DNA of 64,000 nt from Candidatus Wallbacteria bacterium (GTDB taxonomy: Bacteria; Muiribacteriota; JAQTZZ01), in NCBI GenBank assembly GCA_028687545.1, contig JAQTZZ010000002.1:74087-138086 (forward strand), written 5' to 3'. Below are positions 8,859-47,194 of this stretch, piece after piece. The translations under genes and the position numbers were made by a program. The notes below the pieces were generated by a model. The model had not been told where the DNA came from. It ran no database searches and saw nothing but the letters and a program-made list of their open reading frames with translations. Each line of letters starts with the position of its first letter. Positions within the stretch are counted from its first letter, which is position 1.

Positions 8859-8911
8859 TTGAACAGCTCCGAATTTTTTTAGTAATTATAACTAAATTCA
8901 GTTAAAAGAAA

Positions 8912-8941: not shown

Positions 8942-8958
8942 ACTTGCGATTCAGGAGA

Positions 8959-13180: not shown

Positions 13181-13214
13181 AAAAAAAGGGCACGGTTTCC
13201 CGTGCCCTTTTGGT
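13181..13214 (-). terminator. Strong rho-independent terminator (bidirectional hairpin) immediately 3' of giant gene A
   Basis: The sequence is AAAAAAAGGGCACGG-TTTC-CCGTGCCCTTTT. On the minus strand the hairpin is followed by TTTTTTT. The same element occurs again at 24402..24434. Confidence 0.8.
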
Positions 13215-16200
13215 TCACTCATGATTGTATTCGATTCTGGTCTTCTGTCTCTTCAGCAGTTCGTCCATCAGTTTGGTGTCCAGGATCCAGAAAGGCACCA
13301 GGATCGCCCTGGTATTGTTGGACTTGTCTGTGACAGAGATCTTGAGCAGTTCAGGTTCAAGCGGCAGTTGCTCGAAATCAAGGCGTGTGCTTTCCTTGAA
13401 CTGGGTGAAGAAGATGGCATGCTTATGGCCTGTGTTGTCTGTCATGATCGGGATATTCTCAGTCGGGAGATTGACCCAGGCCCCGTCCGGATCGGTAACG
13501 CCAGGCGTTTTCTTGACTTCGATCTTCACATTACCGGCGAAAGTCACAGGGAATACTCCATTGTGTCCCTCGATCAGGTTGTGGGAGATGAAAGGTGCAT
13601 TTTCAATACAATCGACATTGTCGCGGGCTTTGACTTCAAAAGCCACTCTCATGTCCTCGTCAATGCCTAGCACATTCGGCTTATTCGGAGTCAGGTCGCC
13701 AATGTACTGGCCGAAATCGAAAAACTCCGCTTTCATGTAGTTGTTGCCTGGCATCGGCTGATCCACGGCATCGAGGGAATACACATTCCTGTCGATGAAA
13801 TAGTCGAAGATGTCACGTGGCTTATCGACAGTCTCGTCATTCCCTTCCACCAGCCTGGGCTCATTTTTCCCGTCGCCTGTGACTATGATCCGGATCTTTC
13901 CGCGCTCGCTGGTGACGCTGTTGAGCGGATTCAGGCCTGTTCCGCCCCATTCCGTATTATCCACAAGGGCAGTCAGGCTGGGAGTGGTGGAATTGTCGAT
14001 TTTAATGCCGTTCATGCCCTCGTCCACGAATCCATATCTGGGATCCAGAAAGATGTCGTCCCTGTCATCGTCATTCACCTGATACTTGATCACCCTGCTC
14101 AGTTTGGGTATCACGACAGTGAATGACAGTTCAGGCGGGTCATTGTCGTGCACCATCAGCTTGGCAGCGTATTTCCAGGGGGCATTGGCATCGTCGCCTG
14201 CAGTTTCAGGCGGAATGATCGGAGTGCCGTTGGAATTGAGATAATTGCCCTTGCCGTCTGTGCCGTAAACATACCAGTAAAGGTAACTGGCATAGTTTTC
14301 CGGCAAAGGACCAACAGTTCTCTTTGGATTGTAAAGAAAGAGGAATCTGTGCATGTATTTCTGAAGTCCGCCTGTTTTCCCAGGCTGACTTACATGGTAG
14401 TAACTGGAATCATCAGGCGGATTATCCACTGAGCCGATAATACGGGTAAAATCGTCATCCAGCTTGCCGTCAACGTTCAGGTCTACCAGAGAACCTTCGG
14501 GTATCTGGACGCTCATGTCCAACTGGCTCTGGTAATCAGTGTAAACCGAGTCCACAGTGCGGTCCTGCAGCTGATCGAAACGCCTGTTCCCTGAGTTGGC
14601 GGTCGGGTTTTCGATCTGGACTCTGAGCTTGAAATCATCGGGCTTCAGCGCCACATTGGGATTGTTGTCCAGGACCACATACTGGATTTCCCTTGGGAAG
14701 AGGTCGGCTGTGGTGCCGCCGTCCGCGTAATCGTCAGTGACGTAATAATAAAGCGCAGGTCCTTCTTTATCCACGACTTCGATCTGATACCCGAAATCCT
14801 TGGAACCCGGGGTCCCGGTATCAATATCGTGATAGCTGGTATGCCTTGGCGTATCGCAGGTCAGGTCATAGTAATTAAACTTTGGGGGCACTACGTCCGG
14901 GACCTGGTCGCGGGGTTCCCATTTCACGCATGGGTAATCGAAATCCAGCCAGAGGTAATAGCAGGCGAATTTGGGATCAGGTGCGCCGGACAGAGGCATC
15001 ACAAATTTATACAGATTCTGCTGCGTCGTGAGATTCAGCTTGACTTTGAACACATGCCTGTCCGCAAAGTTCGGAGGATTCCAGGTGTCCCAGGCCACTG
15101 TCTCATCCAGAGGCCCGTCAGTGTTGTTCCTGTATTCCACCACTGTGTCGTCTGACAAATCTCCTTTTTCGAACATGGTCTGTGTCCAGCGGTAAATGGG
15201 GGTGCCTGAGCTGTTGTCGAAGATGAATGCACCTACCCACCACTGGTACTTGATCTCGCCCCAGTCCTTTTTCCTGTCGAGATGGGAGTTGCCTGCGCCA
15301 GGGTCGAGCTGCGATGTGCCGAAGATCCCGATCCCGTTATCATTGCTGACAGGAACATCAATCCCGTTATAGGGATAGTCCTCCAGAGTGGTCTTCTGGT
15401 CGCTGTTGATGTCAACTGATCCGCCTGGGACCAGGTCGCCCGGGTTGCCTGTCAGACAGGCGGCCTTATCATTGACGTCAGTGGCCAGAGAAGGTTTGTA
15501 GTTGTTGGGTTTAAGCCCGTCGCCTTTGTAGTTCCAGACGCCCACTCCGTCATAACTGTCCACCAGGGAAGTGGATCCGGCATCATGCAGATGGAACTGG
15601 TAATACTTGCCCCACTGCACATAGAATGTGGCGTAAATCGGGACTCCGGTATCCTCGTCCACCTGCTGCGGGGCATGGATGTTGACCTGGTGGATGTAAC
15701 CCGGGGTAGGAGCGTTTTCATTGCCCACATGTATCACATGCTCTGCGATGAAATTCATGTCTGAATTCTTCCAGGCAGCCGGAGGAGTTGATGGCGCATA
15801 TCCGCCCGGGAGGAAGCATTTCGCGTCTCTCCACTCGAACGGGCAGGAGCTGGAAGTGGCCATGGCGTAACCAAGAGATTTGCGCTGGTCGATGAAAGAG
15901 GGGAATTTCATTGTCTCATAATTGTAGCGCTGATATACGGCCAGAACCTGGACTTTGTAAATGCCGCGGTCTCTGAAGAGAATCTTGAATCCCTTGCGCT
16001 CGATCTGAGCCGCACCATTCACCATGTATAGATAATTGTCAGGCTCATTGGTAGCTGAGACGTCGATCTTGACGCCCTGTCCGGCACTGGTGAGCACATT
16101 CTGGGGCTGCCCGTCGATCGGAGGATTGACAAACGGATCGACTTTTTCGCCTGTGATTTTATTGCCGAGAGTGGCATTGGGCATCCAGAATTCATACAGT

Positions 16201-17530
16201 ACATTGCTGCTCTGGAGCACATCGATCACCCGGATATAATAGATCAGGCCTGGGCCTGCGTTCGTGCCCTCGATCAGTCCGATCGGGTAGCCGCCTGTGA
16301 ATCCGTTGGAACTCAAAGGCTGATGTGTCGAAAGCGTTGATTCGCCGTAATTGTTGTTTTTATTCAGGTAGTCACCGGCAAAAGAAGGCGGGTTTTCAAT
16401 GTAAAATGTATAAGCCAGGTCTTCTTTCAGATAGTCATCATTGGGTTTAGCCGGATCTTTGGGAGGCAATGGATTCGTGTTGTTGGAATCAGGATCCATG
16501 CAGACAAAATCCACATGTGAGATGTCATCGCCCGCAATCGGAGGGCCGGCTATGTTTACGACTGCAATGTCTGTATCTATTGCTCTCACATCCACCATGC
16601 TTGTGCTCATGTCGAGCACTGCGGGAGAACTGAAAAACGGGTCCCAGACCAGAGTGTTTCCCGCGTACCAGCCATAATCCTGGCGCTTCCAGATGTTCCC
16701 GCCCAGAAAGATCTTGAACATCAGGTAATGGTCTGCGATGTTGTTTTCCTTGACCCTCCAGACACTGTAATACCAGCCGTCGGAAAAGACGGAAGTCCAT
16801 CTTTTGGTCAGCTTGGCCTGCTGTGGAGTGGGAGGCGGTTCGCCAGGCTGTGGAACATATGTGTAATCATTGATGTCTTTGACCTGGTCCGGCGGCCACA
16901 AGGTATTGGGATCCCATCCCTGGGGTTTCAATTCCTGGGTTTTTATCCCATAGTAAACATTGCCCTGTCCGTCTGCAGCGATGGCTTCGATCGTACCCGG
17001 CACATTGTTCGGGATGGAAAAAGTCACTGAAGTGCCTGCTGTCAGTCCGATCATCTCGGTTCGATTGAAGGACCTGAGGTCAGGCTGCAGTTCGTACTTG
17101 ATGCCGCCCAGGCCGTCCCACTGGTCTGCCACGCACATGTCTATGGCATCAGAGTAATAAAACCAGTCTTCCTGGCTGTTCTTGGTGGCAGCTCCGATGG
17201 AGGAAGTATGGTCAGGCAGATTCACCTGCTGAGCGCTGCCGTCCATGGCAGTAGGCTTCGCGTATGACAGGCCGTCTACATCGGTTTCCACAGTTTCCAT
17301 CTGTCCGATTTTCAAGATCTCATCCGGAACAGTGGTATAGAAATATCTGCGGCCAGTGCAGCTCACTGCTATGTCCATCCTGCCTGTGGGAGAAACGTTG
17401 GGCTGGTCATTATAGTTTTCACCAGGAGGAGAGTCTCCGCAGGATGCGCCCAGAGCCTGATAGGTATAGTTGCACTGGAACAGATGGAAAACCTGCTCGA
17501 ATGCGTTGAACTGACTGGAATAAGGATCCC
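13181..17530. repeat. High-identity duplicated tract copy A (~97-98% nt identity to 24402..28770)
   Basis: Direct by-eye comparison of the first ~400 nt after the terminator shows only scattered substitutions. Protein identity is above 90% across the corresponding translation. Confidence 0.6.
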
Positions 17531-18299
17531 AGGAACCTGCGACAGCGATCGGCCTGTGAGGGTCATTGTAATAATCGTCCCAGAAAGTGAGGTCCCGCTC
17601 CTCGTAATTCTTGATCAGGGAATGCTGGCCACGTCCGTAATGGCCCCAGCCAATGTTATCGTTGCAGTGCATGAAAGTGAAGTAACCGTTGGGGAGCTGG
17701 GCAAAGCAGTTGGTGTCTATGTCGCAGCCATTGGGCACCAGGAGATTGCCGAAATCGTCTTTCCAGAAATTGGTGTTGAAATCAAAGGCCGAGCCCCATT
17801 GTCCCCCGCTTACCCACCATCTCCAGCCGTGGACATTGAATCCGTGTCCGAAATGGTTGTTCCAGTTGTTGGGATAAGAGCAATAGATCCATTGCCCGTT
17901 GATACCCATCACTACCCTGAAAAAAGTCCGGTTGACCAGAGTGGGGACATCGAATCCTTCAGCGGTCAGCCTGGCCAGCTCCGCAGGGGTGACGCGGGGC
18001 GGCCCGAAAGCAGTAGTCTTGTTGCAGAGGAGGTATACGTTGCTGAACATGTCGACAGCGATCGCCTTGCCTGAATCGCCCGGCATGAAGAGCCGTTTGG
18101 CCTTGGGGTCATTTCCCTGGTCCACAATAATGGTCTCTGTGCTCTCATGGAAAGGACCGTAAACTCCCTTGTTGATTCCATCGCCGACCAGAACATAGAC
18201 ATCGCCGTTGCGCTTGTAGATATCCTTATTGGAATATGTCGCTACTGCAAAAACCGCACTGCCTGCCATTAAGAGCAACAACAGAAAGATTTTCCTCAT
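13215..18299 (-). CDS. Giant secreted protein, paralog A (1694 aa), unknown function. A hypervariable cassette near the N-terminus sits in an otherwise conserved body.
   Basis: The reading frame is intact and a signal peptide MRKIFLLLLLMAGSAVFAVA is present. I recognised no known catalytic or sorting motif. It is about 90%+ identical over its C-terminal ~1400 aa to the ORF at 24434..29638. Confidence 0.7.
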   Translation of the reverse strand: MRKIFLLLLLMAGSAVFAVATYSNKDIYKRNGDVYVLVGDGINKGVYGPFHESTETIIVDQGNDPKAKRLFMPGDSGKAIAVDMFSNVYLLCNKTTAFGPPRVTPAELARLTAEGFDVPTLVNRTFFRVVMGINGQWIYCSYPNNWNNHFGHGFNVHGWRWWVSGGQWGSAFDFNTNFWKDDFGNLLVPNGCDIDTNCFAQLPNGYFTFMHCNDNIGWGHYGRGQHSLIKNYEERDLTFWDDYYNDPHRPIAVAGSWDPYSSQFNAFEQVFHLFQCNYTYQALGASCGDSPPGENYNDQPNVSPTGRMDIAVSCTGRRYFYTTVPDEILKIGQMETVETDVDGLSYAKPTAMDGSAQQVNLPDHTSSIGAATKNSQEDWFYYSDAIDMCVADQWDGLGGIKYELQPDLRSFNRTEMIGLTAGTSVTFSIPNNVPGTIEAIAADGQGNVYYGIKTQELKPQGWDPNTLWPPDQVKDINDYTYVPQPGEPPPTPQQAKLTKRWTSVFSDGWYYSVWRVKENNIADHYLMFKIFLGGNIWKRQDYGWYAGNTLVWDPFFSSPAVLDMSTSMVDVRAIDTDIAVVNIAGPPIAGDDISHVDFVCMDPDSNNTNPLPPKDPAKPNDDYLKEDLAYTFYIENPPSFAGDYLNKNNNYGESTLSTHQPLSSNGFTGGYPIGLIEGTNAGPGLIYYIRVIDVLQSSNVLYEFWMPNATLGNKITGEKVDPFVNPPIDGQPQNVLTSAGQGVKIDVSATNEPDNYLYMVNGAAQIERKGFKILFRDRGIYKVQVLAVYQRYNYETMKFPSFIDQRKSLGYAMATSSSCPFEWRDAKCFLPGGYAPSTPPAAWKNSDMNFIAEHVIHVGNENAPTPGYIHQVNIHAPQQVDEDTGVPIYATFYVQWGKYYQFHLHDAGSTSLVDSYDGVGVWNYKGDGLKPNNYKPSLATDVNDKAACLTGNPGDLVPGGSVDINSDQKTTLEDYPYNGIDVPVSNDNGIGIFGTSQLDPGAGNSHLDRKKDWGEIKYQWWVGAFIFDNSSGTPIYRWTQTMFEKGDLSDDTVVEYRNNTDGPLDETVAWDTWNPPNFADRHVFKVKLNLTTQQNLYKFVMPLSGAPDPKFACYYLWLDFDYPCVKWEPRDQVPDVVPPKFNYYDLTCDTPRHTSYHDIDTGTPGSKDFGYQIEVVDKEGPALYYYVTDDYADGGTTADLFPREIQYVVLDNNPNVALKPDDFKLRVQIENPTANSGNRRFDQLQDRTVDSVYTDYQSQLDMSVQIPEGSLVDLNVDGKLDDDFTRIIGSVDNPPDDSSYYHVSQPGKTGGLQKYMHRFLFLYNPKRTVGPLPENYASYLYWYVYGTDGKGNYLNSNGTPIIPPETAGDDANAPWKYAAKLMVHDNDPPELSFTVVIPKLSRVIKYQVNDDDRDDIFLDPRYGFVDEGMNGIKIDNSTTPSLTALVDNTEWGGTGLNPLNSVTSERGKIRIIVTGDGKNEPRLVEGNDETVDKPRDIFDYFIDRNVYSLDAVDQPMPGNNYMKAEFFDFGQYIGDLTPNKPNVLGIDEDMRVAFEVKARDNVDCIENAPFISHNLIEGHNGVFPVTFAGNVKIEVKKTPGVTDPDGAWVNLPTENIPIMTDNTGHKHAIFFTQFKESTRLDFEQLPLEPELLKISVTDKSNNTRAILVPFWILDTKLMDELLKRQKTRIEYNHE

Positions 18300-18403: not shown

Positions 18404-19366
18404 TCAGGACTTGAGATTATCCTTCAGGTACTGCAGGACTGCAGCCTTGAATTTGGGATTTATTTCACTCGCTCCGATCAGGGATTCAACAACTTCGTAA
18501 GTCAGGTCCTGGCTTTCGCTCTGTATGAATTCGGAAAAGTCGGGCCTGGCCATTGGAGAACTTTTTTTCGCGATCAGTTCCGAAAGATAAGACATGGTAA
18601 AGGTCTTGATCTTGTCTTCAGGGCTCATTTTCTGGCCTTCTGCCAAATTAGGCTCTCCCACAGACATCATGTTCACCCGCTCGTAATTGGCAGTGAGTTT
18701 ACCGGAATCTGAAGATCCGGATGGGAGCAGATTCTCATAAACCCCGCTGTTCAGGACCAGCTTGATCCCTTTTTTATCTGCAACTGTTTTCAGGGCAGTC
18801 TTGATTTCAGCAAGAATCCTGGAAGTTAACTGGGCAGCTTCCCCGGTGGTGTAGAATTCCACTGAAGATTCCGACTGCTTTAACTGCAATTGCTCACTGT
18901 TCAGTTTCAGAGTTTCCAGTTCCAGTGAATCCAGCTTGTCCTGATATGGCTTCATGGCACGCTCAGCCTCGTCGTGAAACTGGAGATTCAGCTTGGCAAT
19001 GTCCACTTTGCCGGTCATTTTTTTCTGCTGCTCTTCAAAGAGGCTGCTTTTCATGCCGAGAATCCTGCTGCAGGTCTGGTTTTTCTCAGCTGCCAGATCA
19101 TTCAGCCTCTTGGCAATTTCTTCATTCCGCGTCTTATTCCTGGCTTTCAGCCTGTCTTTTTCGACGCTGCGGGTTTTCCTGGCTTCTTCAATCGCACTGA
19201 CAGTCAGTTTTCCCTCTACCGGACGCAGAAAAGTCCCTGCTTCAGGATAATAATAAAGAATTGTCATGGGATGATAATAAAAAGCCAGGTTCAGATTGAT
19301 GGTTCCGACAGGTTCAGCGAGCAGGGTTGAACACACCATCAACAATGTCAGGACTGAATATTTCAT
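18404..19366 (-). CDS. Skp/OmpH-like periplasmic chaperone paralog (320 aa, coiled-coil rich), upstream of giant gene A
   Basis: It has a signal peptide. A post-signal motif EPVGTINLNLAFYYHP resembles the Skp N-terminal beta-strand. A long K/E/Q-rich coiled coil follows. The segment VADKKGIKLVLNS resembles the Skp C-terminal AKKGY..ILD segment. The 4-bp ATGA overlap with the upstream ORF suggests translational coupling. Confidence 0.45.
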   Translation of the reverse strand: MKYSVLTLLMVCSTLLAEPVGTINLNLAFYYHPMTILYYYPEAGTFLRPVEGKLTVSAIEEARKTRSVEKDRLKARNKTRNEEIAKRLNDLAAEKNQTCSRILGMKSSLFEEQQKKMTGKVDIAKLNLQFHDEAERAMKPYQDKLDSLELETLKLNSEQLQLKQSESSVEFYTTGEAAQLTSRILAEIKTALKTVADKKGIKLVLNSGVYENLLPSGSSDSGKLTANYERVNMMSVGEPNLAEGQKMSPEDKIKTFTMSYLSELIAKKSSPMARPDFSEFIQSESQDLTYEVVESLIGASEINPKFKAAVLQYLKDNLKS

Positions 19367-20235
19367 CTTGCTTCCTCCTTATTAAGGGCATTAACGAGCA
19401 TTTCCTGCAGTTCAGAAGCGAATTTATATTTTTCAAAAATTCCCTGCAAAATCTCCAGGGAATAATCAGCTCCACCATAGACGATGAATTTATCCCTGTC
19501 AGTCAAGCTGTTTAACCTGAATTTAAATCCCTGGCTCATGAAATATGAAAATCTCTGCCTTTCCTGTTCAGTAAAACTGTCTTTGTCCAGGGCGCACAGA
19601 TCGTTGATATGGTAAATCACAGAAGCGGCAGAATTGATACTTCCGGGATAAAATATGATCCTCTCGACCTGATGCGCCTTTTTAACCTTGCTGATCCCTT
19701 CATTAATATCCGTCCAGATCTGTTTTCTGATTTTTTTCTGCTCTTCCTGCGTCGCTGAATATGCTGAAAAACTCTTCATGATTTTATCGATTTTTCCGCC
19801 TACTTCAATCAGTTTCTTCAAAAGTACACTCTGCAGGGCAAGATATTTTTTCTCTTGTTCTGAACTTGGTTTTCCTGTTTCAGTTTTTCTGTATTGATTT
19901 ACAAGGTCTGATCTCTGAATTTCGATCCCCTGTTTCTCCTTGATCAGGGTATTAAGCTCTTTTTTCAGTTCATTGTCTCCCTGCTCGGAATTTGCGATGA
20001 AATCCCTGCGGACATAGGCAAGGCTGGCCTGGCTGAATTCGTTGTTTTTCAGCGATTTGAGCGAAATGAACCCGTCAGTGTCAGGCAGATAGAAGAAAAC
20101 TGTGTAAGGGTGGAGCCTGTAAAGCAAAGCCAGATCCACACTGCCGAAATCAGCACAGGCTGGAAAGATGACAGCCAAAACAGCGGCGAAAAAGAGCCTT
20201 TTCATATTTTCCCTTTCCGACTGAGTCATGCTCAT
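19363..20235 (-). CDS. Second Skp/OmpH-like chaperone paralog (290 aa), first gene of the operon
   Basis: It has a signal peptide. The motif DFGSVDLALLYRLHPY parallels the N-terminal motif of the neighbouring paralog. A coiled-coil region and a KKAHQVERIIFYPGS segment follow. Confidence 0.4.
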   Translation of the reverse strand: MSMTQSERENMKRLFFAAVLAVIFPACADFGSVDLALLYRLHPYTVFFYLPDTDGFISLKSLKNNEFSQASLAYVRRDFIANSEQGDNELKKELNTLIKEKQGIEIQRSDLVNQYRKTETGKPSSEQEKKYLALQSVLLKKLIEVGGKIDKIMKSFSAYSATQEEQKKIRKQIWTDINEGISKVKKAHQVERIIFYPGSINSAASVIYHINDLCALDKDSFTEQERQRFSYFMSQGFKFRLNSLTDRDKFIVYGGADYSLEILQGIFEKYKFASELQEMLVNALNKEEAR

Positions 20236-20309: not shown

Positions 20310-20338
20310 ATTCTATCCGCGATTCTATGATCTGTCAA
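20310..20338 (-). promoter_or_regulatory. Sigma70-type promoter (TTGACA-N17-TAGAAT) for the Skp-like/Skp-like/giant operon A
   Basis: On the minus strand, TTGACA (plus-strand 20333..20338) is followed by a 17-nt spacer GATCATAGAATCGCGGA and then TAGAAT (plus-strand 20310..20315). The whole ~65 bp element is conserved upstream of operon B at 31640..31707. Confidence 0.5.
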
Positions 20339-20437: not shown

Positions 20438-21700
20438 ATGTTATGTTTGAAATGCAGGAGATCTCCAGTGCCTGGTAAGGTCAAAAATCTTTTTCTGCTG
20501 CTCACTTTTGTGACTGTTCTGCATTTTATCGTGTTTTCCTGGCTAATGAATGTCGTCCCCCTGCTGAGCGGGATTTCCGGTTATGACTGGCCGACTATGC
20601 TGCTCCTGCTTCTCGGAAATCTCTGGTTTGTTTTCTGCGGCTTGAAGTATCAGGAAAACCAGGAAGACTTCCGCTGGAGCCTGTATCTTTCCGGCTACCT
20701 GCTCCTGCTGGTTTTTCTCTTCCTGCTGAATCGAAGACTTCTGTTGTTCCTGATGGGGGTCTTTCTCTATTCCGGGATGTATCACAACAGGAATCGGACA
20801 GTTTATCTCTTCATTTTCCTGTTTTCTCTCATTGCATTCAGCGCTTACTGGGTTTCAGGATGTCTGCTCTTATCTTTCATCTACGCTGTTTTAAGCGGGC
20901 TATGGGAACGCCTGAGCAGCGGGTTTGAAAAAGTGCTGGCCTTGTCGGGCGGACTGATTCTGCTGCTGGTGATTTTCCCGCTGCTTAACCTGCTTTTCCA
21001 GTATCAGCCCCAGACCCTGATCAATGCCTGCAGTCCGGAAATATGGAATGCCATGCAACTGAGTGCAGTCACAGCATTGATCTCGACTCTGATCATTCTA
21101 GTACTGGGTGTCCCGCTTGCCTATATCATGGCCAGGAACGATTTCAGGCTGAAAGCCGCAGTCGATGCTTTGATCGACCTGCCGATCATGGTTCCTCAGA
21201 CAGCGGCAGGAATCGCCATTCTGGTCCTGGTCGGCCCTAAAACACCTCTGGGAGACTTTTTAGCTCAGCAATTCGGAATGTCTTTTGCCGGAACAGCCAT
21301 CGGCATTATCTGCTGCCAGATCTTTGTCAGTTTCCCATTTCTGGTACGGTCTGCGATCAATGCCTTTGAAGCGGTGGACGCGAAATTCGAAAATGCCAGC
21401 CGCTCGCTGGGTGCATCTGCAGCCCTGACTTTTTTCCGGATCACCCTGCCACTTGCCGCGCCTGGGATTTTCAACGGCTGCATCCTGAGTTTTTCCAGGG
21501 CTCTCTCCGAAGCAGGCAGCCTGATGATCGTAGCTTACAGGCCGAGCACGATCCCGATCATGATCGATGACACATTCAATCAGTTCGGCATGCGGGAGGC
21601 TGCCCCGATCACAGTAGTGTTTGTGGGCATCTGCTTCTGGGGGTTCATTTCCCTGAAGTGGCTTTATGAAAACCAGAAGAGAAGGCTGAAACAAGCTTGA
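20438..21700 (+). CDS. ABC transporter permease, molybdate/tungstate/sulfate (CysTW/ModB/WtpB) type, with an extra N-terminal membrane domain of about 170 aa
   Basis: The C-terminal half carries the BPD-transporter fold and EAA-loop region ENASRSLGASAALTFFRITLPLAAPGI. The N-terminal 170 aa are hydrophobic. The true start codon is uncertain. Confidence 0.7.
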   Translation: MLCLKCRRSPVPGKVKNLFLLLTFVTVLHFIVFSWLMNVVPLLSGISGYDWPTMLLLLLGNLWFVFCGLKYQENQEDFRWSLYLSGYLLLLVFLFLLNRRLLLFLMGVFLYSGMYHNRNRTVYLFIFLFSLIAFSAYWVSGCLLLSFIYAVLSGLWERLSSGFEKVLALSGGLILLLVIFPLLNLLFQYQPQTLINACSPEIWNAMQLSAVTALISTLIILVLGVPLAYIMARNDFRLKAAVDALIDLPIMVPQTAAGIAILVLVGPKTPLGDFLAQQFGMSFAGTAIGIICCQIFVSFPFLVRSAINAFEAVDAKFENASRSLGASAALTFFRITLPLAAPGIFNGCILSFSRALSEAGSLMIVAYRPSTIPIMIDDTFNQFGMREAAPITVVFVGICFWGFISLKWLYENQKRRLKQA

Positions 21701-21716
21701 TGTTACTGGAGGAAAT

Positions 21717-22661: not shown

Positions 22662-22672
22662 TAAATCTGGCT

Positions 22673-23605: not shown

Positions 23606-23707
23606 AATTACCCCTTGAAATCATTATCAGTATGACATTTTAGCCTCTGCCATATCAAGTAGTAATTTGGAGGTGTTTTCCTGTATAATTGATTTCACAA
23701 GGCCAAC

Positions 23708-24403
23708 ATGACGATGAAGATATTTCTGACCCTGTTTTTTTTTCTGCTTTTTTCTGGAACTTCGAATTCATGTTCAGCCTATAATTTCAGAAACTCGACC
23801 TTCAACGACATCAAGCGAGCCTCAGCAAAATCGTTTTTCAAGATCATTTCCAGCATCAATGGATTCGAAAAATGCGGCACAGCCGAGCTTGAGTCCCTGA
23901 AGTCCCGCTGGAGCGATGTCTCAGTATCCTGGACCCTTTTCCAGACCAAAGTGGAAAACTGGCTCAGGCTGATCCCTGATGAAACTTCCGTGAAAGACTG
24001 GAATGCCGCGTTGGGAGAATTTCAGCGGATTATCGGAAAAATACACGGAGAAATTGCAGCAGGAAGCGGGGAAACAGCGCTCAGCGAGATGACTGGACTC
24101 AAGATCGATCTGCTGCTTTTTTTTCATTTCAATCCCCTGGATACATCCAGGGATGCGGCAAAAACCGGGGACCGCGGTACTATGATCATAGTTTTTTCGG
24201 ATGTATCCTGGTTTAAAGATGAACTGCCGCCTGAACTTGTGTTGTTTCAAAAGAAAATCGGGGAACTGTACAAAAATTTTGATGAGCCGCACAGGAAATC
24301 CTTCCTGGAATGGAAAGAAGATCACAGAATTGTTCTGAAAAAAGTGCTGGCTGATTATTTCGAACATCACAGCTGGCTGAGACGGTCAGGGGAAAATCCT
24401 TAA
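23708..24403 (+). CDS. Small secreted protein of unknown function (231 aa), paralog of 32713..33375
   Basis: It has a signal peptide. The conserved core LFQTKVENWLRLIPDE is shared with the copy-B paralog. Confidence 0.45.
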   Translation: MTMKIFLTLFFFLLFSGTSNSCSAYNFRNSTFNDIKRASAKSFFKIISSINGFEKCGTAELESLKSRWSDVSVSWTLFQTKVENWLRLIPDETSVKDWNAALGEFQRIIGKIHGEIAAGSGETALSEMTGLKIDLLLFFHFNPLDTSRDAAKTGDRGTMIIVFSDVSWFKDELPPELVLFQKKIGELYKNFDEPHRKSFLEWKEDHRIVLKKVLADYFEHHSWLRRSGENP

Positions 24404-24434
24404 AAAGGGCACGGTTTCCCGTGCCCTTTTGGTT
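24402..24434. terminator. Bidirectional rho-independent terminator between the small secreted protein gene (+) and giant gene B (-). It is the same sequence as 13181..13214.
   Basis: The sequence AAAAAGGGCACGG-TTTC-CCGTGCCCTTTT lies between two convergent stop codons. Confidence 0.8.
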
Positions 24435-27400
24435 CACTCATGATTGTATTCGATTCTGGTCTTCTGTCTCTTCAGCAGTTCGTCCATCAGTTTGGTGTCC
24501 AGGATCCAGAAAGGCACCAGGATCGCCCTGGTATTGTTGGATTTGTCTGTGACAGAGATCTTGAGCAGTTCAGGTTCCAGCGGCAGTTGCTCGAAATCAA
24601 GGCGTGTGCTTTCCTTGAACTGCGTGAAGAAGATGGCATGCTTATGGCCTGTGTTGTCTGTCATGATCGGGATATTCTCAGTCGGGAGATTGATCCAGGC
24701 CCCGTCCGGATCGGTAACGCCAGGTGTTTTCTTGACTTCGATCTTCACATTACCGGCGAATGTCACAGGGAACGCTCCATTGTGTCCCTCGATCAGGTTG
24801 TGGGAGATGAATGGCTGGTTCTCGATGCAGTCCACATTATCCCTGGCCTTGACTTCGAATGCCACTCTCATGTCCTCGTCTATGCCTAGCACATTCGGTT
24901 TGTCAGGAGTCTTGTCTCCTATGTACTGACTGAAATCGAAAAACTCCGCTTTCATGTAGTTGTTACCCGGCATCGGCTGATCAATTGCATCGAGAGAATA
25001 TACATTCTTGTCGATAAAGTAATCGAAGATGTTCAGGGGTTTGTCGACAGTCTCGTCATTCCCATCAACCAGCCTGGGCTCATTTTTCCCGTCGCCTGTG
25101 ACTATGATCCGGATTTTTCCGCGCTCGCTGGTGCCGTTGTTAAGCGGATTCAGTCCGGTCCCGCCCCATTCCGTATTATCCACAAGGGCAGTCAGGCCTG
25201 GAGTGGTGGAGTCGTCGATTCTGGTGCCGCCCATGCCTTCATCCCCGAATCCATATTTCGGTTCCAGGAAGATGTCATCCCTGTCGTCATCCGCCACCTG
25301 ATACTTGATCACTCTGTTCAGTTTGGGAATTACGACAGTGAATGACAGTTCAGGCGGGTCATTGTCGTGTACCAGCAGCTTGGCAGCATACTTCCATGGG
25401 GCAATCGGATCTACTGCCTCACCTGCAGCTTCCGGAGGTATGATCGGAGTGCCGTTGGAATTGAGGTAATTGCCCTTGCCGTCTGTGCCGTAGACATACC
25501 AGTAAAGGTAACTGGCATAGTTTTCAGGCAGCGGACCCACGGTGTCTTTTGGGTTGTATAGATAGAGGAATCTATGCATGTATCTCATGAGTCCGCCCAA
25601 TTTTCCGGGCTGGCTCACATGGTAGTAACTGGAATCATCAGGAGGGGTATCCACTGACCCGATCAGAAGTGCGAAATCATCATCTATCTTGCTGTCACCG
25701 CTCAGGTCTACCAGGGAACCTTCAGGGATCTGGACGCTGGTATCAAGCTGGCTCTGGTAATCAGTGTAAACCGAGTCCACTGTGCGGTCCTGCAGCTGGT
25801 CGAAACGCCTGTTCCCTGAGTTGGCGGTCGGGTTTTCGATCTGGACCCTGAGCTTGAAATCATTGGGCTTCAGTGCCACATTGGGATTGTTGTCCAGGAC
25901 CACATACTGGATTTCCCTTGGGAAGAGGTCGGCTGTGGTGCCGCCGTCCGCGTAATCATCAGTGACGTAATAATATAGAGCCGGGCCCTCTGTATCCACG
26001 ACTTCGATCTGATACCCGAAATCCTTGGAATTCGGGGAGGCTGTGTCTATGTCATGATAGCTGGTATGCCTCTTGGTATCGCAAGTCAGGTCATAGTAAT
26101 TATACTTTGGAGGTACGACATCAGGAACCTGGTCGCGGGGTTCCCATTTCACGCACGGGTAATCGAAATCCAGCCAGAGATAATAGCAGGCGAATTTGGA
26201 ATCAGGTGCGCCGGACAGAGGCATCACAAATTCAAACAGCTTCTGCTGGGGTGTGAGATTCAGCTTGACTTTGAATACTTGCCTGTCCGCGAAGTTCGGA
26301 GGATTCCAGGTGTCCCAGGGCACTGTCTCGTCCAGCGGCCCATCTGTATTGTTCCTGTATTCCACCACTGTGTCGTCTGACAAATCTCCTTTTTTGATCA
26401 TGGTCTGTGTCCAGCGATAGATGGGCGTACCTGAACTGTTATCAAAGATGAAGGCACCCACATACCAGTGGTATTGGATTTCGCCCCAGTCCTTTTTCCT
26501 GTCTAGATGGGAGTTACCTGCGCCAGGGTCGAGCTGAGATGTGCCGAAGATTCCGGTGCCATTATCGTTGCTGACAGGAACGTCAATCCCATTATAGGGA
26601 TAGTCCTCCAGAGTGGATTTTCCGTCACTGTTGATGTCAGCGCTTCCGCCTGCGACCAGGTCGCCCGGGCTGCCGGTCAGACAGGCAGCCTTGTCGTTGA
26701 TGTCAGTGTTCACAGAAGGTTTGTAATTGTTGGGCTTCCGGCCGTCTCCGCCTGGCGATGGCTTGTCGTAGTTCCAGATGCCCACACCATCATAACTGTC
26801 CACTTTGGATGTGATCGATGCGTCTCCTAAATGGTACTGGAAATACTTGCCCCACTGCACATAAAATGTGGCGTAAATAGGGACTCCGGTATCCTCGTCC
26901 ACCTGCTGCGGGGCATGGATATTGACCTGATGGATGTAACCCGGGGTAGGCGCATTTTCGTTGCCAACATGCACCACGTGTTCTGCGATGAAGTTCATAT
27001 TGGATTTTTTCCAGGCATCCGGAGGATTTGACGGAGTGTAACCTCCGGGCAGGAAGCAGGCAGCGCTTCTCCAGTCAATTGTGGAAAAACAGGAGGTGGC
27101 CATGGCATAACCGAGGGAAACGCGCTCATCAATGAAAGAAGGATATTTCATGGTTTCATAATTATAGCGCTGATATACTCCCATCACCTGGATTTTGTAA
27201 ATGCCGCGGTCCCTGAAGAGAATCTTGAATCCCTTGCGCTCGATCTGGGGCTGGCCGCTGACCAGATACAAATAGTTGTCAGGCTCGTTGGTTACCTTGA
27301 TGTCAATCTTCACGCCCTGGCCGGCATTGGTCAGCACATTCTGGGGCTGGCCGTCGATCACAGGAGTGACAGTCGGATCTACTTTCTCACCTGTGACTTT

Positions 27401-28770
27401 GTTGCCGCTCGTGGCATTTGGCATCCAGAACTCATAAAGCACATTGTTGCTCTGCAGCACATCGATCACCCGCACATAGTAAATCAGACCAGGCCCTGCA
27501 TTCGTGCCCTCGATCAGTCCGATCGGGTAGCCGCCTGTGAATCCGTTGAAATTCACCGGCTGATGGTTCTTGAGTGTCTGTTCTCCGTAATTGTTGTTTT
27601 TGTTCAGCCGGTCGCCTGCGAAGGAAGGCGGGTTTTCAATGTAATAATCGCACCATTGGTCTTCAGGAACATAGTCGTCATTGGGTTTGGTCGGATCCTT
27701 GGGCTGGATCGGATTCATGCTTCCGTCAGTGAGCGCGAAATCCACATGTGATATGTCGTCGCCTGCGATCGGAGGTCCTGCGATATTGACCACAGCAATA
27801 TCCAAATCCAGTTTTCTAACATCGATCCCTGAACTCAGGTCCAAGACTGCTCCATGACTGAACTGAGGATCCCAGACCACCTGGTTTCCTGCCATCCAGC
27901 CATAATCCTGGCGCAGGTATAAATTGCCACCGATGAAAATCTTGAACATCAGGTAATGGTCTGCAATATTGTTTTCCTTGACCCTGTATACACGGTAATA
28001 CCAGCCGTCAGACAGTACGGAGACCCATCTTTTTGTCAGAGCTGCCTGTGCAGGTGTGGGGGGAGGATCACCGGGCAGCGGAACATAGGTGTAATCCTGC
28101 AAGTTCTTGATCTGATCAGGAGGCCAGGCAGTGTCCGGATTCCAGCCTGCAGGTTTCTGTTCCTGGGTCCTGATTCCATAATAAATATTCCCGTTCCCGT
28201 CGGCTGCGATGGTTTCGATTGTACCTGGAATTGTGGCAGGAATTGAGAAATTCATCGTATTGTCCTCAGTGGGGCTTCCTGAGAGGCCTCCGCTGGGGTC
28301 GATCTGGTAACCGCCGATCATCTTGGAGCGATTGAAAGAGCGGAGGTCAGGCAATAGTTCGTATTTGATGCCGCCCAGCCCGTCCCACTGGTCGCAGACA
28401 GCCATTTGAGGGGATTCCGAATAATAAAACCAGTCAGAGCTGCGGTCCTTGGTAGCTGCGCCGATGGAGATCGTTCTGTCAGGAAGGTTGCACTGGACGA
28501 AAGCGGCAGTCATGGCAGTAGGCTTCATATAGCCAATTCCCTGGGCATCCGTTTCCACTGTTTCCATCTGGCCGATCTTCAGGATTTCGTCTGGAATCGT
28601 GGTATAGAAATACCGGCGGCCTGTGCAGCTCACTGCGATGTCCATGTGGCCTGTGGGGCTGACGATCGGCTGTTTGTCATAGTTTTCTCCCGGAGGGGAA
28701 TCGCCGCAGGATGCTCCCAATGCCTCATAAGAGTAATTACATTGAAACAGGTGAAAAACCTGTTCAAATG
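24402..28770. repeat. High-identity duplicated tract copy B
   Basis: See the matching tract at 13181..17530. Confidence 0.6.
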
Positions 28771-29638
28771 CGCTGAATTGCCCGGAATATGGGTCCCATG
28801 TTCCTGCAACAGTAATCGGCCGGTGACTGTCGTTATAATAATCATCCCAGAAGGTCAGGTCCCGTTCCAGATAATTATCGAGTCTGGCAAACTGGGAACA
28901 CATGAAGGAAACAGCATAATAATGCTGGACATGCATCGCAGTCTGGTAACCATTAGGCAGAATCGCATGGTTATTTGTATCAAAGCCATAGCCGTTAGGC
29001 ACCAGCAGATTTCCGAAATCGTCCTTGAAAACAGGCCCGCCATAGGTATGGGCGGCAATGAACAGAGGCGGGGCTACTGCGCCGCCCCAGAAGTCTCCGT
29101 ATGTCGAAAATCCGCATTGCGGCCAGCGCAGGCATCTGTTCTGATAATTATCGTAATAATGGCCGAAGTGGGTGCCACTGCCTCCACCAAGATTCCACCA
29201 GTTGACTCCATAGCCGGCATACAGCCACTCTCCGTTCGGCTGCATCACACAACGGTAAAAGTTCCTGCCGATCAGAATTGCAGGATCGTAACCTTCTGCA
29301 GTAAGCCTAGCCAGCTCAGCGGGTGTGACGCGCGGAGTCTGGAAATCCGTTGTCTTGTTGCAGAGCAGGTAGACATTGTTGAACATGTCGACAGCGATCG
29401 CCTTGCCGGAATCTCCGGGCATGAAAAGACGCTTGGCCTTGGGGTCTGAACCATTGTCCACGATGACTGTCTCTGAGCTTTCAGTGAAAGGCCCGTAAAC
29501 GCCTTTGTTTAGCCCGTCTCCGACCAGAATGTAAACCTGGCCGTTCCTTTTATAAATCTCGCTGTTGGCATAAGAAGGCGCACAATATCCGCTATAAACG
29601 ATTAGAAACAGGAGAAACAATACAAGGATTTTCTTCAT
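24434..29638 (-). CDS. Giant secreted protein, paralog B (1734 aa), unknown function
   Basis: It has a signal peptide MKKILVLFLLFLIVYSGYCA. The last ~60 aa are identical to paralog A, and the C-terminal 1400 aa are above 90% identical. The N-proximal segment is divergent. Confidence 0.7.
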   Translation of the reverse strand: MKKILVLFLLFLIVYSGYCAPSYANSEIYKRNGQVYILVGDGLNKGVYGPFTESSETVIVDNGSDPKAKRLFMPGDSGKAIAVDMFNNVYLLCNKTTDFQTPRVTPAELARLTAEGYDPAILIGRNFYRCVMQPNGEWLYAGYGVNWWNLGGGSGTHFGHYYDNYQNRCLRWPQCGFSTYGDFWGGAVAPPLFIAAHTYGGPVFKDDFGNLLVPNGYGFDTNNHAILPNGYQTAMHVQHYYAVSFMCSQFARLDNYLERDLTFWDDYYNDSHRPITVAGTWDPYSGQFSAFEQVFHLFQCNYSYEALGASCGDSPPGENYDKQPIVSPTGHMDIAVSCTGRRYFYTTIPDEILKIGQMETVETDAQGIGYMKPTAMTAAFVQCNLPDRTISIGAATKDRSSDWFYYSESPQMAVCDQWDGLGGIKYELLPDLRSFNRSKMIGGYQIDPSGGLSGSPTEDNTMNFSIPATIPGTIETIAADGNGNIYYGIRTQEQKPAGWNPDTAWPPDQIKNLQDYTYVPLPGDPPPTPAQAALTKRWVSVLSDGWYYRVYRVKENNIADHYLMFKIFIGGNLYLRQDYGWMAGNQVVWDPQFSHGAVLDLSSGIDVRKLDLDIAVVNIAGPPIAGDDISHVDFALTDGSMNPIQPKDPTKPNDDYVPEDQWCDYYIENPPSFAGDRLNKNNNYGEQTLKNHQPVNFNGFTGGYPIGLIEGTNAGPGLIYYVRVIDVLQSNNVLYEFWMPNATSGNKVTGEKVDPTVTPVIDGQPQNVLTNAGQGVKIDIKVTNEPDNYLYLVSGQPQIERKGFKILFRDRGIYKIQVMGVYQRYNYETMKYPSFIDERVSLGYAMATSCFSTIDWRSAACFLPGGYTPSNPPDAWKKSNMNFIAEHVVHVGNENAPTPGYIHQVNIHAPQQVDEDTGVPIYATFYVQWGKYFQYHLGDASITSKVDSYDGVGIWNYDKPSPGGDGRKPNNYKPSVNTDINDKAACLTGSPGDLVAGGSADINSDGKSTLEDYPYNGIDVPVSNDNGTGIFGTSQLDPGAGNSHLDRKKDWGEIQYHWYVGAFIFDNSSGTPIYRWTQTMIKKGDLSDDTVVEYRNNTDGPLDETVPWDTWNPPNFADRQVFKVKLNLTPQQKLFEFVMPLSGAPDSKFACYYLWLDFDYPCVKWEPRDQVPDVVPPKYNYYDLTCDTKRHTSYHDIDTASPNSKDFGYQIEVVDTEGPALYYYVTDDYADGGTTADLFPREIQYVVLDNNPNVALKPNDFKLRVQIENPTANSGNRRFDQLQDRTVDSVYTDYQSQLDTSVQIPEGSLVDLSGDSKIDDDFALLIGSVDTPPDDSSYYHVSQPGKLGGLMRYMHRFLYLYNPKDTVGPLPENYASYLYWYVYGTDGKGNYLNSNGTPIIPPEAAGEAVDPIAPWKYAAKLLVHDNDPPELSFTVVIPKLNRVIKYQVADDDRDDIFLEPKYGFGDEGMGGTRIDDSTTPGLTALVDNTEWGGTGLNPLNNGTSERGKIRIIVTGDGKNEPRLVDGNDETVDKPLNIFDYFIDKNVYSLDAIDQPMPGNNYMKAEFFDFSQYIGDKTPDKPNVLGIDEDMRVAFEVKARDNVDCIENQPFISHNLIEGHNGAFPVTFAGNVKIEVKKTPGVTDPDGAWINLPTENIPIMTDNTGHKHAIFFTQFKESTRLDFEQLPLEPELLKISVTDKSNNTRAILVPFWILDTKLMDELLKRQKTRIEYNHE

Positions 29639-29747: not shown

Positions 29748-30716
29748 TCACTTCGCTTTCAAACTATCCTTCAGGTATTGGATTACAGCAGCCTTGAATT
29801 TAGGGCTGATCTCGCTGTTATCAAGGAGCGCGGATACCACATCAACAGTAAGATCATGGCTCTCACCCAGAATGAATTCGTTTAAATCCTCTCTTTTGAA
29901 GGGTAATCTTTTTTCGCTGAAACCGGAGATGAAAGACTTGATGAAGATTTTTGCTCCTTCGTCAGGTCCCGCTTTATCGTCTTTATGAGTCTTCGGTTCT
30001 CCGCTCACGACCATGTTCATCCTGTCATAATCCCCACCCGCGTTTCCGGGGGATGTGGTCTTTTCTGAGCTGAATTCATTATCATAAAAACTGCTGTTCA
30101 GAATCAGCTGGATTCCGCTCTTCCCTGCAACTTTTTTCAGAGTATCCTTGATTTCGGCCATTATCTGGTCGATCTCCCTGGAAGTTTCAGCAGGAGAATA
30201 AAACTCCACCAGAAATTCGGAGTTTATCAATTTTTCCTGCTCGGATTTAAGTTCATCAGATTGAATTTCAATGGAATCCAGCTTCTTCTGATAAGGGCTC
30301 AAGGCCCGTTCCATTTCCTCATGCTGTTTCAGGGTGTTGGTTAATTCCGAAGGATTGGAGCTGGCAGCTTTCTGCTGCTGCTCCCAGATACTGCTCTGTT
30401 CTCCCAGGATTCTGATGCTGAGCCGGTTTTTTTCCTCATCCAGAGCATTGAGTTTTTTCTTTATTTCTTCCTGTTTCGATTTGTTTTTGGCTCTGATTCT
30501 CTCCTGTTCCAGTTTCCGGTTTTTTAAAGTGTCCGCTATCACCGAATCCGTGAGTCTGCCCTCGATCGGCCGCATGAAAGTGTGGAACTCAGGATAATAA
30601 TAAAGCAGCACTTGAGGATGATAATAAAACGCCAGGTTAAGATCGACAGTGCCGACCGGCTCGGTCAAGGCAGCAAAGATGGCAGCCAGTAAAAAAATGA
30701 TGGAAAGGTATTTCAT
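29748..30716 (-). CDS. Skp/OmpH-like chaperone paralog (322 aa), upstream of giant gene B
   Basis: It is about 50% identical to 18404..19366 and carries the same EPVGTVDLNLAFYYHP motif. A coiled coil is present, as is the segment VAGKSGIQLILNS. Confidence 0.45.
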   Translation of the reverse strand: MKYLSIIFLLAAIFAALTEPVGTVDLNLAFYYHPQVLLYYYPEFHTFMRPIEGRLTDSVIADTLKNRKLEQERIRAKNKSKQEEIKKKLNALDEEKNRLSIRILGEQSSIWEQQQKAASSNPSELTNTLKQHEEMERALSPYQKKLDSIEIQSDELKSEQEKLINSEFLVEFYSPAETSREIDQIMAEIKDTLKKVAGKSGIQLILNSSFYDNEFSSEKTTSPGNAGGDYDRMNMVVSGEPKTHKDDKAGPDEGAKIFIKSFISGFSEKRLPFKREDLNEFILGESHDLTVDVVSALLDNSEISPKFKAAVIQYLKDSLKAK

Positions 30717-31570
30717 CGTGATTCCTCCTGTTTGAACGTATTGATAAGAATTTCCTGCAATTCCGAGGAAACCTTGTATTTTTCAAAAAGTATCCTCACT
30801 GCTTCCCAGGTATAATCAGCCCCGCCGCACAGAATAAAATTTTCCCTGCCTGCTAAAAAATTCTGCCTGAAATAAAACCCGTATTTCATGAAATTGTTAA
30901 ATTTTCCCCGTTCCTGATCATTGAAATTATCCTTATCAGGATTGCAGAGCTCCAGGATGGGAAATTTATAGCAGTTTTCAGCTCTGGAGGGGGCTCCGGG
31001 ATAAAATATCAGTTTTTCCAGTTTACAGGATTTTTTTAACCGGGTAAGAGCAGCCAATACATCGTCCTTGATCTGTTTCCTCAATTTATCCTGCTCATCT
31101 TTGCCTGCCAGATAAAAGGAACCGAGTTTTACAGTCAAAGTATCGATTTTTCCGATGTTTTTACTGATTTGTTCTCGATTTTTCTCCCTTTCCAAAAGAT
31201 AACCTTTTTCTGTTTCAGTTGAGGCTTTTGAGCCGCTGGCAGCTTGATCACGCCGGTATCTTTCGAAAAGTTCGAGATTCTTGGATTCCAGCAGCTTGTT
31301 TTCTTTTTCCAGTCCTTTGATCTGCTGAAGTGCTTGTGCTCCCATCCTCTCTACGTCGGTAACCATATCCGAGTGAAGATAAACAAGATTCTGGATACTG
31401 AACTCGTTGTTTTTCAAGAATTTGGCTGTTATAAATCCATCGTTTTCAGGCAGATAGAAGAAAATGTTGTAAGGGTGAAACCTGAGCAGCAAAGCCAGAT
31501 CCACACTGCCGAAATCAGCGCAGGCTGGAAAGATGGCAGTTAAAACAGCGGCTAGAAAGAGCCTTTTCAT
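30713..31570 (-). CDS. Second Skp/OmpH-like paralog (285 aa) of operon B
   Basis: It is a paralog of 19363..20235 and carries the same DFGSVDLALLLRFHPY motif. It overlaps the downstream gene by 4 bp (ATGA). Confidence 0.4.
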   Translation of the reverse strand: MKRLFLAAVLTAIFPACADFGSVDLALLLRFHPYNIFFYLPENDGFITAKFLKNNEFSIQNLVYLHSDMVTDVERMGAQALQQIKGLEKENKLLESKNLELFERYRRDQAASGSKASTETEKGYLLEREKNREQISKNIGKIDTLTVKLGSFYLAGKDEQDKLRKQIKDDVLAALTRLKKSCKLEKLIFYPGAPSRAENCYKFPILELCNPDKDNFNDQERGKFNNFMKYGFYFRQNFLAGRENFILCGGADYTWEAVRILFEKYKVSSELQEILINTFKQEESR

Positions 31571-31671: not shown

Positions 31672-31700
31672 ATTTTATCCGCGATCCTGCTATCTGTCAA
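31672..31700 (-). promoter_or_regulatory. Sigma70-type promoter (TTGACA-N17-TAAAAT) for operon B
   Basis: On the minus strand, TTGACA (plus-strand 31695..31700) is followed by a 17-nt spacer GATAGCAGGATCGCGGA and then TAAAAT (plus-strand 31672..31677). The flanking sequence is conserved with copy A. Confidence 0.5.
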
Positions 31701-47185: not shown

Positions 47186-47194
47186 GATCGTCCC

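Follow-up and report, generated by a model that had tools for sequence, protein, structure and literature searches.

Two giant proteins encoded in the genome of an uncultured Candidatus Wallbacteria bacterium are alike along most of their length and sharply different in a short region near their N-termini. What kind of process leaves such a region inside an otherwise conserved protein? The two proteins, referred to here as paralog A and paralog B, lie in a stretch of 64,000 nucleotides (nt). This stretch is called the 64-kb window; its positions are used for all coordinates, and it defines the scope of all local searches. A preliminary description of the window proposed that each paralog carries a hypervariable cassette that is rich in aromatic residues, glycine, and asparagine, and that has been swapped into a conserved scaffold. 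The swapped-cassette reading is not supported by the comparisons presented here. The region looks instead like homologous sequence of old gene duplicates that has diverged in the ordinary way, with neither an exchange of cassettes nor programmed hypervariation behind it.

The divergent region of the giant paralogs

In a global alignment, paralogs A and B are about 80% identical overall. The N-terminus of A has a hydrophobic stretch that, judged by eye, resembles a signal peptide. Paralog B corresponds to P0001, deposited as “hypothetical protein PHW04_01410” of a Candidatus Wallbacteria metagenome-assembled genome (MAG). Neither giant protein has a sequence match in Pfam, NCBIfam, or the PDB. 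A search of 5.8 billion proteins returned four relatives: B itself, P0002 (46%), P0003 (42%; from the same MAG, PHW04_06440), and P0004 (24%).

The divergence between A and B is concentrated in two stretches, V1 (A amino acids [aa] 116-179, B aa 116-204) and V2 (A aa 206-232, B aa 231-256), which are separated by a 77%-identical island (KDDFGNLLVPNG...LPNGY). In 30-aa windows, A/B identity is 0.77-0.90 at aa 31-120, falls to 0.43 and 0.19 across aa 121-180, rises to 0.73 at aa 181-210, falls again to 0.37 at aa 211-240, and lies between 0.5 and 1.0 afterwards; A aa 233-255 are again conserved between the two proteins. Identity is 0.21 in V1 and 0.28 in V2, compared with 0.77-0.87 in the immediate flanks; alignments that include homologs put it at 0.18-0.30 and 0.26-0.36, respectively. 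Within V1 of A, identity to B is 0.21 in the core (aa 143-179) and 0.44 at aa 116-142. At the DNA level, blastn aligns the two genes from end to end, with interruptions confined to A nt 17763-17948 and B nt 29027-29284. Mismatches are significantly clustered within the N-terminal 640 aa (a maximum of 47 in 60 columns, against at most 39 in 20,000 column permutations, p≤5e-5), and the clustering is also significant when substitutions alone are counted.

The preliminary description was accurate in several respects. All of the peptides it quoted are present in the sequences, and the segments it delimited (nt 17534-17939 and nt 28768-29278) correspond to aa 121-255 of A and aa 121-290 of B. The roughly 85% conservation it gave for the first mature residues agrees with the 81-85% identity measured at mature residues 25-115. 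Its claim of localized divergence within a conserved scaffold holds for the sharp boundaries of the region; divergence is not confined there, as A and B are 66-67% identical at aa 331-365 and at aa 366-640, and a 5'-to-3' gradient runs across the whole gene. The smaller downstream indels that it mentioned were also found: 13 aa after A418 and 5 aa after A925, together with 3-4 aa at about A601 and 2 aa near A1369. Other details needed revision. The supposed single block is in fact V1 and V2 split by the conserved island, and both motifs at which the paralogs were said to re-converge lie inside the delimited segments. The segment lengths of about 135 and 170 aa overstated the contrast: the B interval is 11 aa too long, A255 aligns with B279, and B is longer by about 23-24 aa rather than 35.

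The two versions had further been called essentially unalignable, which is true of the A/B pair at the DNA level only. Adding P0002, P0003, and a further homolog, P0011, to the alignment exposes anchors common to both versions: NW, HFGH, RW(P), an aromatic-x-aromatic pair, and (F/V)(W/F)KD. The island of A is 46-54% identical to these three homologs. Paralog A retains the subfamily form NWNNHFGHG, and B carries lineage-specific insertions. Those in V1 of B are LGGGSGT and a second insertion of about 17-20 aa within YYDNYQNRCLRWPQCGFSTYGDFWGGA, the placement of which depends on the alignment. The divergent region of each paralog contains four cysteines at non-homologous positions, with one C-x5-C per paralog (CDIDTNC in A, CLRWPQC in B). 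The aromatic, glycine, and asparagine richness of the region was borne out, because the 60-aa window richest in W, Y, F, H, G, and N falls inside it in both proteins, starting at aa 126 in A (0.63) and aa 127 in B (0.58; mean 0.30).

An NW..H(F/W)GH motif with an HxxH pattern occurs in V1 of A (aa 146-153; nt 17830-17860), B (aa 146-163), P0002, and P0003, and in A an additional histidine lies close to it (HFGHGFNVHG). Judging from these residues, metal binding by the motif is a possibility. Two plus-strand open reading frames (ORFs) overlie the divergent region (17484-18074, 196 aa; 28406-29449, 347 aa). They are probably not genes and were set aside as artefacts: both occupy the codon-complement frame of the giant genes, and their mutual similarity goes no further than that of the sense genes.

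The search for switching machinery

Self-blastn of the window revealed no second copy of either divergent region (nt 17604-17954 or nt 28871-29293), no template repeat of the type used by diversity-generating retroelements (DGRs), which would match the variable region at about 90% and differ from it at adenines, and no promoterless donor; the additional silent cassettes that the preliminary description suggested looking for are absent from these 64 kb. The region contains no tandem repeats and no convincing flanking repeats. Inverted repeats of 22 nt that are 77% complementary do flank it in both genes, at non-homologous positions and at chance level. Pfam scans of 39 of the larger ORFs of the window found no reverse transcriptase (RVT), integrase, or invertase. 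A search with the B cassette against the 5.8-billion-protein collection gave no match, a weak negative because B itself was not returned. With no second copy in the 64 kb, no convincing repeats, and no recombinase or reverse transcriptase in the scanned ORFs, and with the two versions homologous, the proposal of a swapped cassette was not upheld.

The giant-protein family

A profile search with the N-terminal 640 aa against 1.84 billion cluster representatives identified 63 proteins, mostly of 1200-2100 aa with a few shorter fragments. A 15-sequence family profile run against the 5.8-billion-protein collection listed at least two members, both already known. A scan of GTDB species genomes identified 21 loci, with up to four copies of the giant gene per genome; the named hosts are all Wallbacteria, UBP16, or Riflebacteria MAGs. 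Family members have no significant sequence match in Pfam, NCBIfam, or the PDB, and searches of the PDB with family profiles were empty even at E≤10. A literature search on Wallbacteria and Riflebacteria turned up nothing about this giant-protein family. The family is more novel than the cassette: it is unannotated, limited to candidate phyla, multi-copy, and linked to genes resembling those of the periplasmic chaperone Skp. In 17 of the 21 loci, the giant gene is preceded by a homolog of a coiled-coil gene (encoding roughly 320-400 aa), and at the A, B, and P0003 loci two coiled-coil genes (about 290 and 320 aa) and the giant gene form a three-gene unit. The P0003 unit is the third such unit in the same genome (contig L001, 4749-12018; proteins of 293 aa, 317 aa, and a 1785-aa giant). 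Its neighbors differ from those of A and B and include PAD_porph, a Tricorn-like gene, and a glycosyltransferase.

Across the family (22 members compared), the segment between the anchors equivalent to A115 and A205 is 89-184 aa long (standard deviation [SD] 34, compared with an SD of at most 9 in the other N-terminal segments), and its mean pairwise identity of 0.20 is the lowest of all segments. When whole proteins of 20-22 members are compared, the divergent region is the largest hot spot of length variation; others lie at aa 331-360, 1171-1200, 1411-1440, and 1471-1500. Its rate of change is ordinary elsewhere in the family. In pairs from other subfamilies with 65-67% overall identity, V1 and V2 are 59-79% identical, no worse than the rest of the protein. 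P0002 (ENA) and L025 (JGI), which come from two different metagenomes, are 99.9% identical and have identical cassettes. The region is special in the family for its length and not for its rate, and the average rate in the other-subfamily pairs, together with the P0002/L025 identity, argues that the sequence is constrained rather than junk. Within lineages it is stable, and the excess divergence is particular to the A/B pair; the label of hypervariability does not fit. The collections searched contain no second sample of A or B: a metagenome scan with A and B patterns was empty, and a further scan returned a second copy of P0002 only.

Divergence of the two paralogs

In V1 and V2, A is nearer to P0002 (0.41 and 0.48-0.59, respectively) than to B, whereas in the flanks of V1 and V2 the order is reversed (A-B 0.77-0.86, A-P0002 0.52-0.56). 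A relative-rate test for substitutions gave 12 versus 13 informative sites with P0003 as the outgroup and 6 versus 15 with P0002, neither of which is significant. Substitutions occurred on both lineages, with the addition of insertions that are mostly specific to B. An acceleration of B only was rejected for substitutions on the basis of this test; it is true of insertions only. The rate of nonsynonymous substitution (dN) is about 0.5 in the cassette compared with about 0.1 beside it. Synonymous substitution (dS) is saturated and the ratio dN/dS is 0.15-0.23, an estimate that is weak in either direction owing to the saturated dS and the uncertain alignment.

Third-codon-position identity between A and B forms distinct strata along the genes. 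It is 0.37-0.64 over codons 1-650, mostly 0.67-0.78 over codons 650-1600 (apart from two windows, at 0.48 and 0.92), and 0.96-0.98 over the last 95 codons; the terminator beyond the stop codon is identical, and similarity then stops abruptly. The stepwise 3'-ward drop in synonymous divergence is also apparent when 13183-15300 is compared with 24402-26500. These strata and the identical terminator indicate one or more gene-conversion events between the paralogs, which appear to have homogenized the body of the proteins, encoded by the 3' two-thirds of the genes, and to have left the old divergence in place in the head. The immediate flanks of the cassette belong to the old stratum, with a third-position identity of 0.51-0.64 and a dS of at least 1.

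The small genes upstream are 46-48% identical between modules A and B and 27-33% identical to their counterparts at the P0003 locus. These proportions argue that A and B are true sister modules in which the small genes are simply faster evolving. The proposal that gene conversion is needed throughout to account for the 80% identity of A and B was rejected, given that the small genes, too, differ proportionally more from the P0003 locus and that the head flanks are synonymously old.

Structure and composition of the head

The N-terminal 640 aa of A, the head, were modeled with AlphaFold2 (AF2). A five-sequence alignment gave a predicted local distance difference test score (pLDDT) of 35. With 21 sequences, the pLDDT was 69 and the predicted template modeling score 0.68, and the model shows numerous short strands together with two long β-hairpins (aa 226-283 and 498-546). 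The pLDDT is below 50 at aa 143-160 in V1 and at aa 209-225 in V2 and reaches 64-76 over the island, in which short strands are predicted at aa 186-189 and 194-196. On the TOP-IDP scale, the mean of the region is among the most order-promoting 0-1% of windows of the same length. Sequence entropy is low only in V1 of A (0.1 percentile) and is normal in V1 of B and in both V2 stretches. In keeping with the preliminary description, V1 and V2 are not a disordered linker; the low AF2 confidence allows for some flexibility. They are probably structured loops, neither a linker nor a domain in their own right, and we infer that they are exposed and adjacent to each other.

The head resembles, in several ways, surface or secreted β-propeller proteins that have blades of the SBBP, NHL, and YVTN types and loops for ligand binding. 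It is β-rich, it has blade-like motifs (IAVDMFSNVYLL, IAADGQGNVYYG, and VADQWDGLGGIKYEL), weak SBBP matches occur in 5 of 15 family members, and the top Foldseek matches of the head model in the PDB are mostly propellers. Propellers usually vary in the stretches between strands, and the variable segments of the head likewise lie in poorly modeled stretches between predicted strands. In contrast to known propellers, no repeat family reaches its threshold: the best SBBP E-value is 0.01, below the gathering score; Pfam detects no SBBP- or NHL-type repeat in A or B; and no Foldseek match is significant (E≥3.7e-3, TM 0.10-0.18). Long hairpins and very large inserts also set the head apart, as does the body that comes after it, about 1000 aa without recognized domains. 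A carbohydrate- or receptor-binding role for the region is conceivable, the aromatic composition being the only hint in that direction; a stray CBM26 match (E=0.072) occurs in one homolog.

Explanations for the divergent loops

The reading to which we give somewhat better than an even chance is that A and B are old duplicates that underwent ordinary post-duplication divergence in two head loops, which may form a paralog-specific binding surface. In this account the duplicates are copies of a lineage-specific giant secreted envelope protein, and the duplicated block spans at least 11 kb, including the two Skp-like genes and a tungstate-transporter/polyferredoxin cluster. The 5' third, with its β-rich head, has kept the old divergence, and the 3' two-thirds were likely gene-converted later. 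Purifying selection holds the head core at about 80-90% amino acid identity, and V1 and V2 have gathered substitutions on both lineages along with several indels, mostly insertions in B. Together, the two stretches could form a head surface that is rich in aromatic residues, glycine, and asparagine, stapled by disulfides, and specific to each paralog; such a surface is plausible and might engage a different binding partner in A than in B. The C-terminal body and the dedicated chaperone-like partners would remain interchangeable between the two. Several points weigh against this account. A dN/dS below 1 is no positive evidence of diversifying selection. The head model is only moderate, its Foldseek matches are insignificant, and it is an assumption that V1 and V2 lie at the surface and next to each other. 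No carbohydrate-binding module or lectin family matches A or B among Pfam, NCBIfam, and PDB sequences. The final place of the giant protein may be the cell surface or the periplasm, and the assignment of the roughly 320-aa gene as Skp-like is weak, falling under the family thresholds.

Neutral drift, in which V1 and V2 are nothing more than the head loops under the least constraint and decayed through substitutions and indels after duplication with no effect on specificity, is possible and, in our estimate, rather unlikely. The dN/dS of 0.15-0.23 without a signal of positive selection agrees with drift, as do the low AF2 confidence of both loops and the family-wide variation in length at the same site, and further loops have diverged too (aa 331-365, the indel after A418, and aa 601-606). 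Drift is harder to reconcile with the pairs of 65-67% overall identity that hold the region at 59-79%, with the identity of P0002 and L025 there, or with the strongly aromatic composition, the conserved anchors, and the even number of cysteines in each paralog. These observations argue for constraint on the region and for an excess divergence that is specific to A and B. It is also conceivable, if improbable, that the loops are a by-product of conversion, an unconverted remnant that shows the true age of the duplication while the rest was homogenized. The clear synonymous strata, the identical 3' end and terminator, the identity of only 46-48% between the neighboring Skp-like genes of the two modules, and the fact that in V1 and V2 A is no nearer to B than to P0002 would all follow from such a history. 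The immediate flanks, however, are synonymously old (0.51-0.64, dS≥1); given this old third-position divergence, the flanks were not recently converted, and their 77-87% amino acid identity reflects purifying selection. From the P0003 locus, too, the small genes differ proportionally more (27-33% identity) and so simply evolve faster. Conversion accounts for the contrast between head and body, not for that between loop and core within the head.

Very unlikely, and the least probable of these readings, is programmed variation by a dedicated exchange or mutagenesis system, such as silent cassettes of the pilE/pilS or vlsE kind, a DGR, or an invertible segment. A sharply bounded divergent segment inside a conserved scaffold, gene conversion that was clearly active between the 3' ends of A and B, and the weak 22-nt inverted repeats (77% complementary) around the region in both genes might be expected of such a system. 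The 64 kb hold no extra copy of the cassette, though, and no tandem or good flanking repeats, and the inverted repeats are non-homologous in position and at chance level. The scanned ORFs encode no reverse transcriptase, integrase, or invertase, the P0002/L025 cassette is stable between two samples, and the differences between A and B comprise indels and changes at all codon positions, with saturated dS. The empty database search with the B cassette points the same way, weakly, as B itself was not returned.

A more ambitious reading, which we regard as doubtful, extends to the whole family: Wallbacteria and Riflebacteria would possess a so far undescribed multi-copy family of giant envelope proteins, most of them encoded together with one or two oversized Skp-like partners, in which the 89-184-aa insert between strands of the head acts as an aromatic-rich specificity module resembling the complementarity-determining regions of antibodies, with distinct inserts kept in A, B, and P0003 while conversion homogenizes the rest. 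If this is true, the cell would have a limited, fixed set of binding specificities, with polysaccharides or the surfaces of partner or prey cells as possible targets. If V1 and V2 set specificity, they would be the working end of an unannotated giant family in two candidate phyla without cultured members, and a natural starting point for asking what such cells attach to. The old head and the converted body would then also be a clean case of selection keeping the heads of paralogs distinct. As the evidence stands, the region exemplifies a common pattern, that of fast-diverging loops in duplicated surface proteins, and involves no new mechanism.

Comparison with known systems

In the pilE/pilS and opa systems of Neisseria, vlsE of Borrelia, and MgPa of Mycoplasma, as in the present case, there are several paralogs per genome, the conserved parts are homogenized by conversion, and divergence peaks in a short, probably exposed region. 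In contrast to those systems, the window has neither silent partial copies nor a repeat-bounded cassette, P0002 and L025 do not vary between samples, and A and B bear no sign of ongoing switching; their divergence is ancient. Targets of DGRs share with A and B a localized variable region in a large secreted protein and a composition suited to binding. The variable regions of DGR targets are C-terminal and have a C-type-lectin fold, whereas the region in A and B is near the N-terminus, its differences include indels, and the window has no template repeat and, among its scanned ORFs, no reverse transcriptase.

The product of the roughly 320-aa gene resembles Skp/OmpH chaperones in its signal peptide, N-terminal “igtVD” strand motif, long coiled coil, and C-terminal “(i)kLVLN” strand. 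Three paralogs score 16.1, 14.2, and 25.1 bits against Pfam OmpH (PF03938), with a best E-value of 2.2e-5, and hhalign aligns the N-terminus with the canonical OmpH encoded in the window. Unlike canonical Skp, which has about 170 aa, these proteins have 320-395 aa; their scores are under the gathering cut-off of 32.4, and the hhalign probability is 54%.

The giant proteins also recall giant bacterial adhesins of the RTX and Bap types, which are composed of repeats resembling Ig or cadherin domains. Shared traits are the size of about 1700 aa, a secretion signal, and a C-terminal half in which “DNDPP,” “DNNPN,” and “V(T/K)D..GN” motifs look cadherin-like by eye. They differ from these adhesins in having no match to Cadherin, Big, or any other repeat family even at E≤10, and A and B have no tandem repeats, RTX motif, or known anchor or secretion-system signal. 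In A, the motifs VLDNNPN, VHDNDPPEL, ARDNVD, and VTDKSNN (aa 1207-1218, 1383-1394, and 1556-1566; window positions ~14118-14680) look by eye like the ends of cadherin- or Ig-like domains. Some are almost invariant across the family, and they match no domain family.

Operons and genomic neighborhood

The coordinates of the giant genes, their divergent loops, and the elements of their operons are collected in Table 1. Each promoter match is the best in the scanned interval and lies upstream of the first gene of its operon; the 310 nt around the match of operon A are 75.6% identical to module B.

Table 1. Positions of the features of modules A and B in the 64-kb window
Feature	Position	Strand	Remarks
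Giant paralog A	13215..18299	minus	1694 aa, secreted; ORF and translation
Head of A, aa 1-640	16380..18299	minus	β-rich, possibly β-propeller-like; stratum with the oldest synonymous divergence
A V1, aa 116-179	17763..17954	minus	W/N/G/F/H-rich loop, core aa 143-179; matches the blastn gap
A conserved island, aa 180-205 (KDDFGNLLVPNG...LPNG)	17685..17762	minus	Between V1 and V2
A V2, aa 206-232	17604..17684	minus	Second divergent loop
Terminator-like hairpin and T-run after A	13183..13214	minus	Directly after the stop codon; same sequence as the hairpin after B
320-aa coiled-coil secreted protein upstream of A	18404..19366	minus	Weakly OmpH/Skp-like; 48% identical to the copy in module B
290-aa protein, first gene of operon A	19363..20235	minus	Lipobox-like IFPAC motif; distant relative of the 320-aa gene
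Sigma-70-like promoter match upstream of operon A	20310..20338	minus	Best match (11/12)
Giant paralog B	24434..29638	minus	1734 aa; ORF and translation
B V1, aa 116-204	29027..29293	minus	B-specific insertions; from homolog alignments; matches the blastn gap
B conserved island, aa 205-230	28949..29026	minus	From alignment
B V2, aa 231-256	28871..28948	minus	H-Y...CSQF motif common to B and P0003
B-specific 13-aa insertion GYQIDPSGGLSGS, aa 443-455	28274..28312	minus	Smaller indel site; from the A/B alignment
Terminator-like hairpin after B	24402..24433	minus	Similarity of the A and B loci ends just past the hairpin
322-aa Skp-like gene, module B	29748..30716	minus	
285-aa protein, first gene of operon B	30713..31570	minus	
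Sigma-70-like promoter match upstream of operon B	31672..31700	minus	Best match (11/12)

A duplicated gene cluster adjoins each giant-gene operon (20438-24403 and 31772-36882), with a gene order that differs between the two copies. It encodes a WtpA-like tungstate-binding protein, a WtpB-like permease (420 and 411 aa, extended at the N-terminus by about 165 aa), a Fer4_5 polyferredoxin, and a secreted protein of about 225 aa without assignment that is 45% identical between the copies. The cluster of module B has an extra gene for a PQQ-type β-propeller.

Further along the window, positions 45777-63014 encode LpxA, an LpxC-FabZ fusion, LpxD, OmpH, BamA, TamB, MlaD, an ABC ATPase, and LpxK. The presence of Lpx enzymes, BamA, TamB, MlaD, and OmpH indicates that the host is a diderm with lipid A. 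Positions 36980-45229 encode a 1595-aa STAND-type NTPase (DUF4062, NACHT/AAA_16, HEAT, and many TPR repeats), in which internal TPR DNA repeats occur at ~41000-41686; next comes a fusion of an adenylate/guanylate cyclase with HEAT repeats (1127 aa). Downstream of A, at 5811-13114, are genes for a 5'-nucleotidase/metallophosphatase (509 aa), an unassigned 753-aa protein, and a 1015-aa M6 (immune inhibitor A-like) peptidase, the products of which are probably further secreted proteins.

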